Virus record (IMG/VR): IMGVR_UViG_648276659_000002
Coordinates: 1-11,556 of that record
Source: a virus
Lineage: Duplodnaviria; Heunggongvirae; Uroviricota; Caudoviricetes
Length of the DNA: 11,556 bases
Strand: one strand, 5' to 3'
In this document: one piece after another, positions 1 through 7,372 of the stretch
Layout: every line of letters begins with the position of its first letter
Numbering within the stretch: the stretch's first letter is position 1
Notes under the pieces: model-generated
What the model saw: only the letters and a program-made list of their open reading frames with translations
Databases searched by the model: none
What the model was told of the DNA's origin: nothing
Position numbers and translations under genes: made by a program

Positions 1-28
1 AAAAAAACCCCCGGGCGGGGGGGCGGGG
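1..28 (-). terminator. Rho-independent terminator downstream of the 332-aa ORF
   Basis: Read on the minus strand: a 5-bp C/G stem (plus 8-12 pairing with 17-21) around a 4-nt loop, followed by T7 (complement of A1-7). It lies directly after the stop codon at 36-38. Confidence 0.6.
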
Positions 29-35
29 ATGAGGA

Positions 36-1034
36 TTATGTTATCTCTTTGACATAAAGTATTATCGCGGACTTTATTTCACCATCTAGTTCTTTTGCGT
101 TGATTGACAAATGAACTGGTTTTCTATCCCACTCAGCTTGCTGAAGAGCTTTTTTATGCTCGGATGCGTCGAGAAAAACATCTTGTACTATGCACGATAT
201 TCTTAGATCGGAGTCAACATTTCTCACTTGCACTTTGAAGCTCTCTGGATCAGTGGAGTCAACCTTTTCAATGCGATAATTTCCATCAAGGCGGATCTCC
301 ATTGATTTCCGCCTTGCATTTGTAGTGAGGGTTTTGGATAGATCTGCATCCAATACAACGCCATCAATCTGAGCTGTATCAGCCTTGACAAATGATTTAA
401 CTATGTCGGTTTTTGCGTCATGAGCAAGTCTTTCCATGTTGTCTAGCTTGGGTTTTTCGCTAATAATCTGAGTCAATAATTCACTTCGTTTTGTTTCCTG
501 CTCAGACATGAAGCGCATGGTCGCAAGGTGTTCACGCTCAGACTCGCTTTTTACTTCTGCCATGCGAATCTCTTTGCGGTCTTCTAGATATTTTTTGAAT
601 AGGACGACGCCGCCCCATATAAGAGCGACCCCTAAAACTGTAATAACGATCTCTTGAGGGCCCACTTTACTCACCGCAGTTTGTATAACCTCACCCATGA
701 ACCCATCCATATTAACTTCTATCAAGGACGAGCCATTCTCAACATTCACCTGAATTTCGATAGCTTCCTTCTCTTCTTTTGAAAGCTTTCTTGGGTCAGG
801 AACTCCGTACTTTAACAATGCATAAGCTCGGTTTATTTGGGCCTGCATTTCAACAAAACCCTTCATGACAGAAGGAGTCAAACTGCCATGAAATTTGTCA
901 CCAGTAAGACGGAAGGTTAAGTTAGGCCACCCTTCAAATGATATTCCATCAGGAAGATCTTGCCCAGCGATGTACATCTCAACAAAACGCAAAGCATCTT
1001 CTTCGGAATGAATAACCGCCGTGCTGATTTCCAA
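36..1034 (-). CDS. Hypothetical membrane-spanning protein in the rexAB-equivalent position (candidate superinfection-exclusion / abortive-infection factor)
   Basis: 332-codon ORF co-oriented with and 121 bp downstream of cI. The listed start is TTG at 1032-1034, preceded by AGAGG 7 nt upstream; an alternative ATG is at 975-977. One central hydrophobic helix (IVITVLGVALIWGGVVLF) is flanked by charged, coiled-coil-like stretches. GC is visibly lower than in neighbouring genes. No family recognised. Confidence 0.7.
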   Translation of the reverse strand: MEISTAVIHSEEDALRFVEMYIAGQDLPDGISFEGWPNLTFRLTGDKFHGSLTPSVMKGFVEMQAQINRAYALLKYGVPDPRKLSKEEKEAIEIQVNVENGSSLIEVNMDGFMGEVIQTAVSKVGPQEIVITVLGVALIWGGVVLFKKYLEDRKEIRMAEVKSESEREHLATMRFMSEQETKRSELLTQIISEKPKLDNMERLAHDAKTDIVKSFVKADTAQIDGVVLDADLSKTLTTNARRKSMEIRLDGNYRIEKVDSTDPESFKVQVRNVDSDLRISCIVQDVFLDASEHKKALQQAEWDRKPVHLSINAKELDGEIKSAIILYVKEIT

Positions 1035-1155
1035 GACTAAGCCTCTATAATTATTAATAATTTCAAATGATTGCTGTTTTTATTAGGAGACATTTAGCCA
1101 TTCATCACCCAAACGTCTCTTCAGGCCACTGGTTACCAGCTATGTGACGATGAAG

Positions 1156-1863
1156 TCACGAACTTTTCAGCCATTCCCTTGCCTCGATGTCATCCAGATG
1201 GCGAGACTGCTTCAGAATACCAGCAACATACTCCACCTTTGCTACTTGATGATAAGGCAACGTTATTGGCCTGTGGTCCTGGTTGATGCTTGTAAATTGG
1301 TATTCTCCATCTCTGTCATAGCCAAGAACCTTAATCATGTTGTGTCCTTCAACGGTTCTGACAAACACCTCATCACCCGGGAATACTTTGGTGTTAGGCT
1401 CAATGAGTACATATTCTCCTGATTTTATTCTGGGCCACATGCTGTCTCCTTTCACACGAAGACCAAAGGCATCTGGATCATCGCTATAAATCTTGAGCCA
1501 CCCATCGCGCTCTTCGGTCATCTCGATGGCACCATCAACACCAAGAATTGCCTCACCAACCACGCGCACTAACCCTTTTTTTAATTTGCCAACAAATGAA
1601 AGAGTATCTTCATCATTCGCTCCATTTAACGAAGTGCCGTGCTGAAGCCACACAACATCAACGTTTAGAAATTTCGCAAGCGCATTCATTTTTTCCTGAC
1701 GTGGTAAAGACTCAGCATTAAACCATTTGCTAACGCCTTTGGACGAAAGAGAAAGGGCGCGGGCTATGGCCATTCCCCTACCATGTTCATCAAGACCAGC
1801 TTCTTTACAGGCTTGCGCTAGCCGCTGGGCGAATTCTTTGCGCACTTTTTCATTCTGAACCAT
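1156..1863 (-). CDS. cI: CI-type prophage repressor (N-terminal HTH, C-terminal S24 LexA-like autopeptidase domain)
   Basis: 235 aa. HTH-like segment (GMAIARALSLSSKGVSKW) and C-terminal GDSMWP...K motif typical of the S24 Ser-Lys dyad. Divergent from cro across an operator region. ATG at 1861-1863. Confidence 0.9.
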   Translation of the reverse strand: MVQNEKVRKEFAQRLAQACKEAGLDEHGRGMAIARALSLSSKGVSKWFNAESLPRQEKMNALAKFLNVDVVWLQHGTSLNGANDEDTLSFVGKLKKGLVRVVGEAILGVDGAIEMTEERDGWLKIYSDDPDAFGLRVKGDSMWPRIKSGEYVLIEPNTKVFPGDEVFVRTVEGHNMIKVLGYDRDGEYQFTSINQDHRPITLPYHQVAKVEYVAGILKQSRHLDDIEAREWLKSS

Positions 1864-1941
1864 GAGTACGATACTAAAGCACTTGCAAAAACTTTCAGTT
1901 CAATCATAATGCGTACTGAAAGTACGAAAAAGGATATCCAC
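1864..1941. promoter_or_regulatory. OR-like tripartite operator with divergent pRM and pR
   Basis: Three dyad-symmetric sites about 24 bp apart: AGTACGATACT (1865-1875), ACTTTCAGT core (1891-1899) and CGTACTGAAAGTACG (1912-1926). Rightward pR: -35 TTGCAA 1883-1888, -10 CATAAT 1905-1910. Leftward pRM: -10 TAGTAT (complement of 1871-1876) about 7 nt from the cI ATG, implying a leaderless cI mRNA as in lambda. Confidence 0.65.
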
Positions 1942-2169
1942 ATGCAAAATCTTGATGAGCCGATTAAAGGTGTCGGCATCCCTGAAGTTGCGAAGGCTTG
2001 TGGAGTTAGCGAAAGGGCTGTCTATAAGTGGCTCAAAAACGGCTTCCTCCCTAAGACTGAGTTTTTTGGGAAAACGAAATATGCATCAAAAATCGAAGAG
2101 ATTTCTGGTGGCAAATATCAAGCAAGCGAAATGCTTGAAATAAGCAAAAAGAACCTTTTGGCAGCATAA
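1942..2169 (+). CDS. cro: Cro-like HTH regulator
   Basis: 75 aa, divergent from cI, with HTH segment IPEVAKACGVSERAVYKW. ATG at 1942 is preceded by AAAAAGGA. The upstream ATG at 1909 would lie at or before the predicted pR transcription start. Confidence 0.8.
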   Translation: MQNLDEPIKGVGIPEVAKACGVSERAVYKWLKNGFLPKTEFFGKTKYASKIEEISGGKYQASEMLEISKKNLLAA

Positions 2170-2176
2170 GTAACCC

Positions 2177-2222
2177 CGCTCTTTGTAACAACGGACATTC
2201 GTCCTACGTCGCTGAAAAGCGA
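2177..2222 (+). promoter_or_regulatory. nutR-like site (boxA plus boxB hairpin)
   Basis: CGCTCTTT (2177-2184) matches the boxA consensus. TCGCTGAAAAGCGA (2209-2222) forms a short stem with a purine-rich loop, resembling lambda/P22 boxB. A second small hairpin GGACATTCGTCC lies at 2192-2203. Located between cro and cII as in lambda. Confidence 0.45.
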
Positions 2223-2289
2223 ATCCCAGAATATCTGACCAACCAAGGCCATATGCGTTTCCACGCATACCTTTCAACTAACTATTCAC

Positions 2290-2330
2290 TATTGGAAAAT
2301 TAACAAATGACACAAGCAAGTTACAGCAAG
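2290..2330 (-). promoter_or_regulatory. pRE-like CII-activated promoter
   Basis: Minus strand reads TTGC-tgtaac-TTGC (plus 2316-2329), the TTGC-N6-TTGC CII recognition repeat, lying inside cII codons 4-8 as in lambda. Candidate -10 TAATTT is the complement of 2297-2302. Confidence 0.5.
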
Positions 2331-2603
2331 CCAACACAGCGTGACGTTGATCGCGCAGAAACAGATTTACTCATCAACCTGTCAACGCTTACCCAGCGCG
2401 GTCTGGCAAAGATGATTGGCTGTCATGAATCGAAGATAAGCAGAACGGACTGGAGATTTATTGCTTCGGTCTTGTGTGCTTTCGGAATGGCATCAGACAT
2501 CAGTCCGATTAGCAGGGCTTTTAAGTATGCGCTTGATGAAATCACAAAGAAAAAATCCCCGGCTGCCACCGAGGATTTTAAGCAAATTGATATGCAATTC
2601 TGA
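2307..2603 (+). CDS. cII: CII transcriptional activator
   Basis: 98 aa, collinear with lambda CII as recalled, including the C-terminal KKxPAATE...Q..M.F pattern. Position after cro/nutR. Confidence 0.85.
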
Positions 2604-2626
2604 GGGAATTACTGGATCAATCCACA
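2550..2626 (-). ncRNA. oop-like antisense RNA with its intrinsic terminator inside the cII 3' end
   Basis: Minus strand: stem TCCTCGG / CCGGGGA (one G-U pair) around loop TGGCAG, then T6 (plus 2550-2575). Candidate leftward -10 CATAAT is the complement of 2633-2638, giving a transcript of about 76 nt antisense to the cII 3' end. The -35 is weak. Confidence 0.4.
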
Positions 2627-2635
2627 GGAGTAATT

Positions 2636-2782
2636 ATGACAAAACAACTCAGTCCTTACCAGGACAAAATTCACAAACACATACTACGTGATCGCTTCCT
2701 GTCCAGCTTCAAGCAGCCTGGTCGATTCCGGGCTGAGTTGGAAAAAGTGAAGCTGATGCAGAAGGAGAAAGGTCATGAGTAA
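2636..2782 (+). CDS. Small hypothetical protein (48 aa) between cII and O
   Basis: ATG 2636 preceded by AGGAG with a 5-nt spacer. Its last codons overlap the start of O by 8 nt. Below the size cut-off of the supplied ORF track. Confidence 0.35.
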
Positions 2783-3635
2783 TCTTGCAACCGTAACACA
2801 TTTAAGGCCTTCACAACGGCCTGTGGAGCGTCGTGTGGCAGAAGTTGAAGATGGTTATACCCGTCTTGCAAATGCCCTGTATGAAGAGCTTATCGGCGCA
2901 GATTTAACAAAAAATCAGAGTAAGGTTGCCCACGCCATATGCCGTAAAACATACGGATACGGTAAAAAGATGGATCGCATCTCTGATAGTCAGTTAGCTC
3001 AAATTACCAGGCTGCCAAGACAGAAGGTAAACAAGGCCAAGAATGAGCTTATCGCGATGAAGGTAATCCTTCGCGAAGGCCAGCAAATCGGGCCTAACAA
3101 GAACATCGAGGAATGGCAAATCGAAGGGTGTCACTACTCTGGTGATAATGTCACTGCATTGGTGACAAAAAGTGTCACCAAAACGGTGACAGCGCTGTCA
3201 CCAAAACAGGGACACACAAAAGAAACTATTACAAAAGAAAAAAGAAATAATAAAAACACTATGTCCGAAAGTGTTCGGACGGAGTGTGAAAAAACTCCTG
3301 ACCGTCACGAAGAAACCGACAAGGCATTCGAGGAAATATTCTGGTGTGCAGGCATGCGGAAAGCCGGGAAGAAAAACGCAGCTTCAGCATTCAGAACACA
3401 GTTCAGGGAATGGCGTAAAACTACCAGGGGGACGGCAAGCGAGTTTGCCACGATGCTGGCAGAAGACATCGCATGCAGGAATGGTAAGCAGTTCGGATTC
3501 GACAGGTTGTTACCATCGAGCTACTTGAACGGTCAGCGCTGGAACGACGAAAAGCCAGAAACCATTCAACCACAATCCAAACCATCATCCGCAATCACCG
3601 TATCGAAAACTGGCTACGTGTTTTTCGACAGGTGA
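2775..3635 (+). CDS. O: Replication initiator protein O (iteron-binding)
   Basis: 286 aa. N-terminal domain matches lambda O as recalled (DDGY.RL...GADLTK.Q.KV...RKTYG..K.MDRI.DSQL..IT.LP). Strong RBS AAGGAGAAAGG. Origin iterons lie inside the gene. Confidence 0.9.
3128..3262. repeat. Replication origin: four about 20-bp iterons plus an AT-rich tract inside the O gene
   Basis: Iterons begin near 3128, 3149, 3172 and 3195, each TGTCAC(C)-N5/6-GGTGA(C/T)A, with the fourth arm degenerate. They are followed by an A-rich tract at 3219-3262, the lambda ori arrangement. Confidence 0.7.
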
Positions 3636-3638
3636 ACC

Positions 3639-3746
3639 ATGAAATCAAAAATCAAATCGCTACTGGTCGCTGGTTATAACCACGGCTGGTTAAGTATTTC
3701 GTTTGTCGATTTCTGGTTTAAAAATCTCAATCTGAGGGAATCATGA
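3639..3746 (+). CDS. Small hypothetical ORF (35 aa) coupled to the primase-helicase gene
   Basis: ATG 3639 preceded by AGGTG. Its stop overlaps the downstream start as ATGA at 3743-3746. Not in the ORF track because of size. Confidence 0.25.
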   Translation: MKSKIKSLLVAGYNHGWLSISFVDFWFKNLNLRES

Positions 3747-5623
3747 GGCCAAGTGAACTTAGCGACCTGCTTTGGGCGCAGGTTGACAGGGTGGCTCCGC
3801 ACCTGTTGCCAAATGGCAAGAAAGAGGGGCATGAGTGGGTTGCCGGTAACGTCAACGGTGACAAGGGAAACAGCCTTAAGGTCAACCTTAGCGGCAAGAA
3901 AAAATGGGCTGATTTCGCTGAGGGAGACGGCGGTGACATGCTTGATTTGTGGATGGCATGTCGTGGAATTAACCTGCATCAGGCTATGCAGGAAGCGAAA
4001 GCATTTCTCGGTATCAAGGATGACGATCACCATTTCGATGCCAGACGTGAGAAGAAATTCTCCAGACCTGATCGCAAGAAAATCGCCCGCTACGTTACCA
4101 GAACAGAATCCCATCTTGAGTACCTGCAATCGCGTGGCATATCGCCAGAAATCGTAAAGCGCTACGAGGTTGTCAGCGGCAAGGTGTGGAATGGAGAGCG
4201 GGAACTAGATGCTCTGGTGATTCCGTACAAACGCGATGGTGAGTTGTTGCAGGTCAAGCGAATCAGCACTGAGCGCCCGGACGGGAAGAAAGTCATTATG
4301 GCAGAAGGTGATTGCGAACCTTGCCTGTTCGGATGGCAGGCTCTGGACGCTGGCGTGAGGGCGGTTGTGCTTTGCGAAGGCGAAATTGATTGTATGAGCT
4401 ATGCGCAATACGGCATCTCGGCGTTATCCGTGCCGTTTGGTGGCGGGAAAGGCGCTAAGCAACAGTGGATTGAGTTTGAGTATCACAACCTCGACAGGTT
4501 TGAGGAAATATTCATCTCGATGGACGTTGATGATGTTGGTCGTGAAGCCGCAAGGGAAATCGCAAGCCGACTCGGTGAACATCGTTGCCGTCTTGTTACT
4601 CTGCCGTACAAAGACATCAACGAATGCCTGATGAACGGTGTTACCGAGGATGAAATCTGGCAGTACATCGGCACGGCATCCTACTTCGATCCTGAAGAAC
4701 TCTACAGCGCGCGAGAGTTTTACCAGGACACTATCAACGCTTTCTACGGCAAGCAGCAATATCTGTTTAATCCACCGTGGGAATCTCTGGCAGATAAATT
4801 CCAGTTCCGTGAGGCAGAGTTGACGCTGGTCAATGGTGTGAACGGTCACGGAAAAACGGAGGTTGTCGGGCATATGGCACTTGAGGCAATGCGTCAGGGT
4901 GTGAAGACGTGCATCGCGTCACTTGAGCTGAAGCCTGGTATTCTCCTTAAGCGCCTTACCCGTCAGGCGACGTGCTGCAAGATGCCGCCAGTGCTGGAAA
5001 TTGACTCTGCATTTAAATTTTATGACGAAAGACTTTGGGTGTTTGGCCTGACCGGAACGGCGAAAGCCGACAGGCTGATCGAAATATTCGACTACGCTCG
5101 CCGCCGATACGGGATCCAGTTATTCATCATCGACAGCCTGATGAAATGTGGCATAGGCGACGATGACTATAACGGGCAGAAGGCGTTTGTTGACTCGATT
5201 TGCGACTTCAAAAACAAAACAAACTCCCACGTCATTCTCGTTACTCACTCGCGAAAAGGAGACAGCGAAGAAAAACCAACCGGGAAAATGGACGTAAAAG
5301 GCTCTGGAGCGATAACAGACCTGACAGACAACCTTTTCATCATCTGGCGTAACAAGGCTCGCGAGAGAGCGTTACAGAGAGTTCAGAGTGGTGAAAAGAT
5401 GTCAGAGAAGGACGAACAGCTACTGGCGTCTCCTGCATCTGTTTTGATGCTTGAAAAACAACGTAACGGCGAAGGTTGGGAAGGTGGTGTCCCGTTGTTC
5501 CTTGACGAGCAATCGCACCAGTTCCTGCAACTTGAATCAGGATCGCCATATAGCTACATCGCCAATATGCCGAAATCGGAATATGACGAGGCGTGGCGAC
5601 AGGAAAACGTGACGGAGTATTAA
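3743..5623 (+). CDS. Bifunctional DNA primase / replicative helicase (zinc-binding N-terminus, TOPRIM, SF4 DnaB-like ATPase)
   Basis: 626 aa. N-terminal W.DFA.G.GGD..DL motif, TOPRIM-like acidic motifs (LCEGEIDC, SMDVDDVG), then Walker A GVNGHGKTE and Walker B-like FIIDSLM. RBS GAGGG. Confidence 0.88.
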   Translation: MRPSELSDLLWAQVDRVAPHLLPNGKKEGHEWVAGNVNGDKGNSLKVNLSGKKKWADFAEGDGGDMLDLWMACRGINLHQAMQEAKAFLGIKDDDHHFDARREKKFSRPDRKKIARYVTRTESHLEYLQSRGISPEIVKRYEVVSGKVWNGERELDALVIPYKRDGELLQVKRISTERPDGKKVIMAEGDCEPCLFGWQALDAGVRAVVLCEGEIDCMSYAQYGISALSVPFGGGKGAKQQWIEFEYHNLDRFEEIFISMDVDDVGREAAREIASRLGEHRCRLVTLPYKDINECLMNGVTEDEIWQYIGTASYFDPEELYSAREFYQDTINAFYGKQQYLFNPPWESLADKFQFREAELTLVNGVNGHGKTEVVGHMALEAMRQGVKTCIASLELKPGILLKRLTRQATCCKMPPVLEIDSAFKFYDERLWVFGLTGTAKADRLIEIFDYARRRYGIQLFIIDSLMKCGIGDDDYNGQKAFVDSICDFKNKTNSHVILVTHSRKGDSEEKPTGKMDVKGSGAITDLTDNLFIIWRNKARERALQRVQSGEKMSEKDEQLLASPASVLMLEKQRNGEGWEGGVPLFLDEQSHQFLQLESGSPYSYIANMPKSEYDEAWRQENVTEY

Positions 5624-5791
5624 ATGACCATCTACATCACTGAGCTAATAGCAGGGTTATCGTTACTAATGGTTCTTACTGTATATATTATTAAGTATAT
5701 TCTTTATGCGAATAAAAAAAACCAATTGATCACGATGAGCTTCTGTCAACATTATCATATGACTCAGAAACAGGAATATTTAAATGGCTAA
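5624..5791 (+). CDS. Possible small membrane peptide (55 aa); competes with the HNH N-terminal region
   Basis: ATG 5624 immediately after the helicase stop, with GGAG 6 nt upstream. Encodes one hydrophobic helix (IYITELIAGLSLLMVLTVYIIKYILY). Overlaps the frameshifted HNH reading frame in AT-rich DNA, so it may be spurious. Confidence 0.25.
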   Translation: MTIYITELIAGLSLLMVLTVYIIKYILYANKKNQLITMSFCQHYHMTQKQEYLNG

Positions 5792-6318
5792 AAACAAATT
5801 CAGTAGTAAGAGTAAAAGGTAGTATTGCTGGAGGTGTTAGTGGTGGTTATATATGCATTAGCATAAATAATGTTTTGTATTATGCGCATAGGCTTGCTTG
5901 GTTCTATGTATACAAAAAATGGCCTCCTAAGTTTATTGATCATGTAAATGGGAACAGACTTGACAATAGGATTTCAAATCTAAGACTGGCAACAGAGGAG
6001 CAGAATGCAAGAAACATTGTAGGTAATAGGTTAAACACATCCGGTGCGATTGGAGTGTCTTGGGATAAGACAACTGGCAGGTGGAAGTCTTATGTTGGTT
6101 ATAAAAATAAGACAATATCGTTAGGGTATTTCGATAGCAAAGAAGATGCAGCATTCATAGCAGCACTAGCAAGAAAGAAACTATATGGAACTTATGCGAG
6201 TAAAGCACTTAATTGCGAGCATGAGCTTTTATCTCAATTTAATAATGATGAGGATAAACTTGCGGAATATCTTAAGGAAAAATCTAAAAGGACTCGAAAG
6301 CGTGTTAAAAAAAGATAA
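5706..6318 (+). pseudogene. HNH-AP2 endonuclease, copy 1, disrupted by a frameshift in an A8 homopolymer
   Basis: The track ORF (5875-6318) starts at TTG and lacks the N-terminal region. The same frame is open back to 5716 and encodes the conserved N-terminal part (YDSETGIFKW...GGYICI). ATG 5706 is one base out of frame across the A8 run at 5714-5721; A7 would restore a full-length protein of about 200 aa. Motifs HRLAW...DH.NG...N...NLR are followed by an AP2-like segment. Confidence 0.55.
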
Positions 6319-6350
6319 AGGCCTGCTGGTAATCGCAGGCCTTTTTATTT
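6319..6350 (+). terminator. Rho-independent terminator after HNH copy 1
   Basis: AGGCCTGC (6319-6326) pairs with GCAGGCCT (6335-6342) around an 8-nt loop, followed by TTTTTATTT. Confidence 0.7.
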
Positions 6351-6365
6351 GGGGGAGAGTAAATC

Positions 6366-6572
6366 GTGGCTGAGTTTATGCTCGTCGCACTCAAATGCGT
6401 TGGCGTTGGATGGATTCTTCTGACGTTTTTTATTGTTCTGCATAGCTACATTCGTCTTGTGAATGACGGTAAAGACCCATGGTATACGTTGTTTGGCGCT
6501 GCATTTGTCTGGGTGATTATCGGTGTTATGCCTGTCGCTGTAGCAAAAATGGCGTGGCGTTTTGTTAGTTGA
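6366..6572 (+). CDS. Small hypothetical membrane protein (two predicted TM helices)
   Basis: 68 aa, GTG start preceded by GGGGGAGAG. Two hydrophobic stretches. Sits just upstream of ninB. Confidence 0.45.
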   Translation: MAEFMLVALKCVGVGWILLTFFIVLHSYIRLVNDGKDPWYTLFGAAFVWVIIGVMPVAVAKMAWRFVS

Positions 6573-6579
6573 GGTAACG

Positions 6580-7026
6580 ATGAAGCCAATATACATGCTT
6601 CGCAACGAAGCAATCAGAAACAACGCCATAGACGCAATACTCTCACTTCCGATCGACGACAAGTCACCTCACGAAGTCCACATTAAAGAACCAAAGCGGA
6701 GCAATCCTCAAAACCGCCTTATGTGGGCGTTATTGCAGGACGTATCGCGTCAGGTGCTCTGGCATGGAGAGAGACTTGCGCCGGAGGACTGGAAAGATCT
6801 GTTCACTGCCCTGTGGCTTAAGACCAAAAAACTGGAGCAACGAAGTGCGCCTGGTATCGACGGTGGCGTTGTTATGCTTGGCGTGCGTACCAGCAAAATG
6901 CGAAAGGCCAGCATGACTGAGCTTATCGAAATCATGTTCTGGTTCGGCTCAGAGCGCAACGTGCGGTGGAGTGATGACTCCCGGCGAGAGTATGAATGGT
7001 CACAACGAACAGGGAGGGCGGCATGA
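6580..7026 (+). CDS. ninB: NinB (Orf) recombination protein
   Basis: Collinear with lambda NinB as recalled (...QN..W..L.DVSRQV.WHG..L....WK..FTA...SD..R...EW..R.G.RAA). ATG 6580 with GAGG upstream; the track start at 6562 is TTG. Confidence 0.88.
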
Positions 7027-7205
7027 GGCGACAGCGACGAAGTTTCACCGACATAATCTGTGAAAACTGCAATTACCTTCCAACGAAACGTTCCAGAAAT
7101 AAACCCAGGCCAATCCCAAAAGAATCTGACGTTAAAACCTTCAATTACACGGCTCACCTGTGGGATATCCGGTGGCTAAGACATCGTGCGAGGAAAACAA
7201 GGTGA
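7023..7205 (+). CDS. ninE: NinE
   Basis: 60 aa starting MRRQRRS, matching the lambda NinE pattern as recalled. ATG overlaps the ninB stop (ATGA); RBS AGGGAGGG. Confidence 0.78.
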
Positions 7206-7372
7206 TTGACCAAAATCGAAGTTACGAACAAGAAAGCGTCGAGCGAGCTTTAACGTGCGCTAACTGCGGTCAGAAGCTGCATGTGCTGGAAGTTCACGTG
7301 TGTGAGCTCTGCTGTGCAGAACTGATGAGCGATCCGAATAGCTCAATGTACGAGGAAGAAGACGATGGCTAA
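7202..7372 (+). CDS. ninF: NinF (CxxC zinc-ribbon-like)
   Basis: GTG 7202 overlaps the ninE stop (GTGA) with AGGAAA upstream. Product [27 protein letters not shown]... matches lambda NinF as recalled. Confidence 0.78.

Follow-up and report, generated by a model that had tools for sequence, protein, structure and literature searches.

A probable homolog of the lambda oop RNA and its terminator at the 3' end of cII in a lambdoid prophage of Escherichia coli

Introduction

In phage lambda the OOP RNA lowers cII expression through RNase III, according to the work of Krinke and Wulff (1987/1990) and Krinke et al. (1991) as it is cited in PMC3349717, PMC2327240, PMC5869508 and PMC3985674. The lambda promoter pO also affects replication through interference with transcription from pR (PMC3985674). 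In lambda pO/oop mutants CII activity was not restored after SOS induction, and under some conditions OOP has a modest physiological role (PMC2327240). The question raised by the locus described here is whether an RNA of this kind is encoded opposite the end of cII in a stretch of viral DNA of 11,556 nucleotides (IMG/VR record IMGVR_UViG_648276659_000002, positions 1 to 11,556), which we call the window. An earlier note, made from the sequence of the window, had placed there a leftward RNA resembling oop in size and position, together with a terminator overlapping the 3' end of cII. Here we examine this locus by alignment, by a covariance model and by a survey of related loci, and we weigh the other functions that it may have.

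Results

Genomic setting and mosaic joint

The window is part of a lambdoid E. coli prophage, namely, its immunity and replication region, and has the following genes on both sides of the locus.

1156-1863, minus strand: cI, matching the Peptidase_S24 and HTH domains
About 1942-2169, plus strand: cro
2307-2603, plus strand: cII, the oop target gene (Pfam Phage_CII, E = 1.9e-32)
2636-2782, plus strand: 48-aa ORF, counterpart of P22 orf48 (Pfam DUF2740, E = 8.9e-29)
2775-3635, plus strand: O-like initiator gene (Phage_rep_O match)
3743-5623, plus strand: Toprim/DnaB-like primase-helicase gene

The order is that of lambda, namely, cII, the oop unit (2549-2661, minus strand) and the O-like gene, and in lambda, too, OOP (NC_001416, 38675-38599) runs leftward with cII on one side and the replication genes on the other. 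To the left of 2646 the window shares about 96% identity with the immunity region of phage 933W, and to the right of 2611 it shares 98% identity with Shigella phage Sf101. The mosaic joint is at 2611-2646, where the 933W-type and the Sf101-type similarity overlap, and this overlap is the conserved pO/oop boundary sequence. As read from these similarities, the putative oop unit is chimeric: a 933W/Stx1-type immunity module supplies the body and terminator, and the -35 region is that of a P22/Sf101-type replication module. The chromosome of E. coli strain MS 196-1 is 100% identical over 2300-2800, and the full cII/orf48 arrangement is found in at least 196 of 5,426 complete E. coli genomes, with up to five matching places per genome. 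In the RefSeq/PGAP annotation the identical E. coli region has no RNA gene and the flanking proteins alone are given.

The target circuit was also read from the sequence. The cII gene is full length, and TTGC-TGTAAC-TTGC at 2316-2329 on the minus strand, within the first cII codons, is the CII-binding consensus TTGC-N6-TTGC at the position where pRE sits in lambda and P22; with this putative pRE site the circuit looks intact. Between cro and cII there are a boxA-like CGCTCTTT at 2177-2184 and a boxB-like hairpin TCGCTGAAAAGCGA at 2209-2222, and the region 2177-2222 coincides with the nutR feature in the annotation of 933W. Inside the O-like gene, four iteron-like repeats TGTCAC-N7-GGTGACA (3129-3214), spaced at 20-24 bp and followed by an A-rich stretch, are likely the replication origin; two of them were mistaken for terminators by our terminator scan. 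Several RefSeq and GenBank records, those of Sf101 (ACQ51_gp43; locus L130, 426-572), phi419 and Stx2 phage 86, call the 48-aa DUF2740 protein, whose gene lies between cII and O, a 'tail protein', and this label is very likely a propagated misannotation.

Anatomy of the oop unit

The elements of the oop unit are as follows.

2549-2625, minus strand: predicted oop RNA of 76-77 nt, with its 5' end at G2625 by homology with lambda 38675
2550-2555, minus strand: terminator T6 run, read on the plus strand as the cII codons AAA AAA for Lys-Lys
2552-2579, minus strand: terminator hairpin tO, 12 pairs and loop GGCA, inside cII codons 82-91
2611-2643: conserved 33-bp boundary sequence ACTGGATCAATCCACAGGAGTAATTATGACAAA, equal to the pO/oop sequence printed in PMC3349717
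2633-2641, minus strand: extended -10 of pO, TG-t-CATAAT, identical in lambda and with an equal arrangement in P22
2656-2661, minus strand: candidate -35 of pO, TGGTAA, with a 17-nt spacer, read from the sequence

Across the unit the minus strand reads ...TTTTGTCATAATTACTCCTGTGGATTGATCCAGTAATTCCCTCAGAATTGCATATCAATTTGCTTAAAATCCTCGGTGGCAGCCGGGGATTTTTTCTTTG... The strong minus-strand terminator that had been claimed inside the last cII codons is indeed there, as a 12-pair hairpin (2579-2552) followed by T6 (2555-2550). On the minus strand it reads AAAATCCTCGGT-GGCA-GCCGGGGATTTT, then TTCTTTG; its pairs include one internal U.G and one U.G that closes the loop, and the core TCCTCGG/CCGGGGA has one U.G. 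This hairpin is the longest of eight terminator-like sites between 1700 and 3700, where 2.7 ± 1.7 sites are expected from shuffled sequences. It also has a strand bias, because the folding energy is -16.6 kcal/mol on the oop strand versus -11.1 kcal/mol on the cII strand, where a C.A mismatch replaces the U.G pair and the T run is T4 versus T6. The 83-nt oop strand as a whole folds at -30.2 kcal/mol versus -16.9 ± 3.2 kcal/mol for shuffled sequences (z = -4.2), and none of 200 shuffles was as good.

The 3' end of the predicted RNA lies in or just past the T run. The figure of about 76 nt in the earlier note is thus right as the length of the RNA, which counts 76-77 nt from G2625 through the last T of the run, and wrong as the distance of the -10 from the end of the T run, which is 83-88 nt. 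The predicted RNA is perfectly complementary to the last 54-55 nt of cII (17 codons and the stop codon) and to the 22-nt spacer that follows, and the pairing region ends just before the AGGAG of the next gene.

A hairpin is also predicted for the 5' part of the RNA (2582-2625, minus strand), in which the conserved 5' end GUGGAUUGAU would pair with AUCAAUUUGC, encoded by the cII tail codons QID. Its register differs from that in lambda because cII of the window ends in ...KQIDMQF and not in ...EQIQMEF. The predicted 5' hairpins, of which none shows covariation, differ by class, being AUCCAG/CUGGAU in the lambda-type and GUGGA/UCUAC in the P22-type. In a joint alignment no compensatory change was found in the 5' hairpin, either in the minimum free energy form of the window or in the lambda version, and each form fits its own class only. 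Therefore, supported structure is claimed for the terminator helix alone.

Homology to lambda oop

The proposal that this is an oop-like RNA by size and position was borne out, and there is true sequence homology to the pO-oop-tO unit of lambda. Positions 2548-2625 of the minus strand align base for base with lambda pO/oop/tO, with the start, the -10 and the terminator in equal order and at equal spacing, and in blastn lambda and phage 434 are each 79% identical to the window over 102 nt. The start base G2625 corresponds to lambda G38675, and the two RNAs have the common opening GU(G/U)GAU(U/A)GAUCCAGUAAU. In lambda, too, oop is 76-77 nt long and overlaps cII by 54-55 nt (a figure of 55 nt is taken from PMC3349717), and the extended -10 TGtCATAAT overlaps the rightward gene at its start codon. 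The two tO terminators are alike in the core CUCGG...CCGGG, the U.G pair and the T6 run, but two outer pairs are exchanged between lambda and the window, CG to UA and GC to CG. The units also differ in that the rightward gene is O in lambda but the 48-aa DUF2740 ORF in the window, and in that the -35 is TTGAGT in lambda but TGGTAA in the window.

The whole window was searched against Rfam 15 at the gathering score and no match was obtained, to oop or to any other family; at a permissive E-value the search returned only chance-level terminator look-alikes, namely, Ref55, BSnc120 and His_leader. Since no Rfam 15 family was matched as oop, this null result says nothing against membership in the oop family. 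Because the Rfam search gave no oop family, we built a covariance model of our own, R1, from 15 distinct lambda-type oop sequences, none of them window-type; it has 78 positions and 23 pairs. A search with an oop covariance model had been suggested in the earlier note as a check, and R1 matches 2548-2625 on the minus strand over positions 1-78 of 78 with 58 bits (E = 1.3e-14). With E < 0.1 as the limit, R1 has one further match in the window, to the complementary strand of the hairpin, with 13.8 bits. R1 cleanly separates lambda- and 933W-type oop from background, and it does not match the oop bodies of the P22- and Sf6-type. Thus, the link of the window to these two types runs through the common promoter and 5' end alone.

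Existing records agree with this placement. The phage 434 record has an ncRNA 'oop RNA' at the position homologous to the window unit, the HK629 record has a misc_feature 'similar to lambda oop RNA', and the curated P22 record has an 'oop; similar to phage lambda' promoter and terminator, the promoter overlapping the start of orf48. Phage 933W and the Stx1 phage of AP005153 were listed by Hayes et al. 2012 (PMC3349717) among the lambdoid carriers of the conserved pO/oop, and oop-like sequences in Stx phages are reported in PMC5488031. The records AF125520 and AP005153 themselves carry no oop RNA annotation.

The promoter pO

The CATAAT -10 at 2638-2633 on the minus strand was found as the earlier note had claimed, overlapping the ATG (2636-2638) of the 48-aa ORF. 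It is preceded by TG at 2641-2640, which makes it an extended -10, and for lambda pO the promoter scan likewise reports 'TG before second hexamer: yes'. The CATAAT hexamer is identical across all tabulated loci. [quoted passage not shown]

The candidate -35, which lies in the Tyr-Gln-Asp codons of the 48-aa ORF, matches the consensus at 3/6 positions and is at the same position as TTGAGT in lambda and TGGTCA in P22. A simple promoter scan did not call pO of the window because of this 3/6 match, whereas the lambda and P22 equivalents, used as controls, were called by the same scan. TGGTAA has one consensus match fewer than the TGGTCA of P22/BTP1, the experimentally supported variants, and this counts against the oop reading. 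The extended -10 may compensate for the weak -35. TGGTAA is also the -35 in 20 collected loci, with four terminator classes, and in Sf101 and AP005153. A hybrid lambda/P22 pO with the lambda -10 and the P22 -35 was described by Hayes et al. 2012 (PMC3349717).

A side observation concerns CTGT-GGATTGAT-CCAG at 2612-2627 on the minus strand, which spans the predicted oop start and resembles the LexA box CTGT-N8-ACAG; the lambda counterpart at the same place is CTGT-TGATAGAT-CCAG. PMC5869508 cites a LexA site that lies within lambda oop-pO; its exact position was looked for in the literature, where the citation of Lewis et al. 1994 was all that was found. Taking CTGT-N8-CCAG at 2627-2612 as a LexA site is thus a guess.

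Survey of related loci

IMG/VR was scanned for TCATAATNACTCCTGTNGAT; together with the reference loci, 125 loci were usable, and 49 different sequences were seen downstream. A hairpin followed by a T run is present 62-79 nt behind the promoter in 47/49 distinct sequences, that is, in 123/125 loci. The terminators fall into five classes: lambda-type, window/933W-type, a larger-loop variant, Sf6-type and P22-type. The hairpins of the Sf6- and P22-type are unrelated in sequence, and they lie in genes that encode the unrelated C-terminal peptides ...EKPQDCGNSFEA and ...EKAPKNGEFFEA. In the gap-free alignment of the lambda-type and window-type terminator helix, 98.8% of the cells are paired versus 42-62% in slid controls, and two pairs are changed on both sides between the lambda-type and the window-type, CG/UA and GC/CG. 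These exchanges are essentially one event between two classes, and therefore the replacement of one hairpin by another from class to class is the stronger argument. Between the window and 933W there are six base differences in and around the hairpin, which change the peptide (from PAATEDF in the window to PVAAGDS), and the helix is kept. Two single loci were noted in passing: in IMGVR_UViG_3300044231_000804 (L052) the promoter motif at 875-894 stands without the conserved oop body or terminator, and in a lambda-type locus (L119) the T run is interrupted (TTTATTT).

The -35 follows the rightward gene, being TTGAGT with lambda-type O, TGGTAT with the HK97 gp53-type, TGGTAA with Sf101-type orf48 and TGGTCA with P22/BTP1. 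Among the 125 loci TTGAGT, TGGTAT and TGGTAA are each paired with several of the five terminator classes, and TGGTCA was seen once among the collected loci, with the P22-type terminator. Since each of the three -35 types occurs with several terminator classes, recombination has reassorted the -35 and the terminators at 2611-2646.

Comparison with Stx phages and with P22 and BTP1

The Stx1-converting phage of AP005153 has the cII type, the oop body and the orf48-type -35 of the window and is 99.1% identical to it over 2540-2650. Phage 933W (AF125520) shares the cII type and the oop body (93% identity), but its -35 is TTGAGT because lambda-type O directly follows cII. The 933W hairpin TCCCCGG/CCGGGGA is perfect on both strands and has a 6-nt loop, whereas the loop in the window is GGCA.

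P22 and BTP1 are like the window on the promoter side, where the -10 lies over the start of orf48, the identity is 97.5% over 2611-2650 and the first ~14 nt of the RNA are equal, and they differ on the other side, where the body and the terminator are unrelated to those of the window and the RNA is shorter (62-63 nt, with a 38-nt c1 overlap). The -35 is TGGTCA in P22/BTP1 and TGGTAA in the window. The P22 oop was detected as a 63-nt RNA, 5'-GAUUGAUCCAG..., and P22 small-RNA reads begin at the equivalent of window position 2622 (PMC13397905). OOP-BTP1 appears in the BTP1 transcriptome (PMC7067206), and the supplements of PMC7067206 were searched for BTP1 oop coordinates without finding them.

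Discussion

Proposed function and alternatives

Based on these comparisons, we propose that 2549-2625 on the minus strand is a homolog of lambda oop, within the pO-oop-tO unit of a lambdoid E. coli prophage, and we put the probability of this at roughly 0.85. Sequence homology to lambda oop, the anatomy of the unit, the strand bias of its hairpin and the conservation of a terminator behind the promoter across phages are established for the window. By analogy with lambda, sigma-70 RNA polymerase would start at about G2625, at the extended -10 set within the ribosome-binding site and the start codon of the 48-aa ORF, would transcribe 76-77 nt leftward and would stop at about 2550, where the last codons of cII hold the intrinsic terminator. 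Pairing of the RNA with the pR transcript would span 54-55 nt at the end of cII and the 22-nt spacer, RNase III would cut the duplex, and with less CII made, the activation of pRE and lysogeny would be disfavoured and lytic growth favoured. We infer from the relatives that this RNA would be made from the chimeric pO and would lower CII.

Some of the evidence could also be read in other ways. It may be that the promoter matters more than the RNA, with collision of pO and pR transcription tuning transcription into the origin and the replication genes and the RNA being mainly a by-product, which could coexist with an antisense function. This is in line with lambda, where inactivation of pO alters plasmid replication and raises pR read-through and where stabilisation of oop RNA barely changes copy number (PMC3985674); the origin-like iterons of the window are about 500 bp downstream of pO, and the -10 and start region are the most conserved part of the oop unit. 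However, a promoter that served interference alone would need no precisely placed terminator, yet five classes keep one, and the antisense effect of lambda OOP on cII is independently documented (PMC3349717, PMC5869508). The replication module of the window, moreover, is P22/Sf101-like and not lambda O-P, and repP22 phages escaped oop/ori-lambda-dependent inhibition (PMC3349717). We regard this account as possible but rather doubtful. It is less likely still that the unit is an inactive relic, in which recombination between a 933W-type cII end and a P22/Sf101-type orf48 produced a poor -35 and in which linkage and coding constraints keep the rest. The 3/6 match of TGGTAA, the failure of the scan to call the promoter, and the constraint that the Shine-Dalgarno and ATG of orf48 also place on the -10 region would all fit a relic. 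On the other hand, the extended -10 (TGn) reduces the need for a -35, TGGTAA recurs in the 20 loci with four terminator classes as well as in Sf101 and AP005153, and the full arrangement is kept in the 196 or more complete E. coli genomes. The terminator of the window also retains its bias for the oop strand.

Two further explanations leave out the leftward RNA, and we consider both of them very improbable. In one, the hairpin would be a terminator or pause site for the rightward pR transcript at the end of cII, to which the hairpin and TTTT formed by the plus strand and its weak R1 match of 13.8 bits could be attributed. This was rejected on the C.A mismatch in the plus-strand stem, the weaker energy (-11.1 versus -16.6 kcal/mol) and the run of only four T; the plus-strand hairpin is also unlisted by the terminator scan, the plus-strand tail in lambda has no T run, and a terminator placed before the replication genes would do harm unless there were antitermination. 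In the other, the hairpin and T run would be a by-product of coding for the C-terminal tail of CII (KKSPAATED...) with no function at the RNA level, as might be thought from the AAAAAA that encodes Lys-Lys and from the 'KK(R/S)PAATE' tail, which is similar in lambda and the window. A pure coding by-product was rejected because the helix is kept in 933W, where the tail peptide is altered, and because in the P22- and Sf6-type, where both the peptide and the hairpin of the C1 tail are unrelated, a hairpin still stands equally far from this promoter. In addition, the last 17 residues of lambda CII are dispensable for CII activity and required for OOP regulation (PMC3349717).

Significance for the lysis-lysogeny circuit

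The oop unit of the window is an ordinary copy of the long-known lambda oop, near-identical sequences are already in print as carriers, and no open question in phage biology is altered by it. Its practical value is mostly in annotation, because oop is widespread yet left out by automatic pipelines; it goes unannotated by them because Rfam 15 returned no oop match, and a small covariance model like R1 could seed a public family. The oop unit is split across the recombination joint. We suggest, as a tentative and rather speculative extension, that its output may therefore be set by the replication module that a phage carries and that the shuffling of modules may retune the lysis-lysogeny bias, the -35 of the window being the weakest variant, and that in polylysogens oop may act in trans on cII mRNAs with the same tail, from co-resident or incoming phages. 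Recognition of oop completes the lysis-lysogeny circuit of the prophage, namely, cI, cro, nutR, cII with its putative pRE site, and oop.
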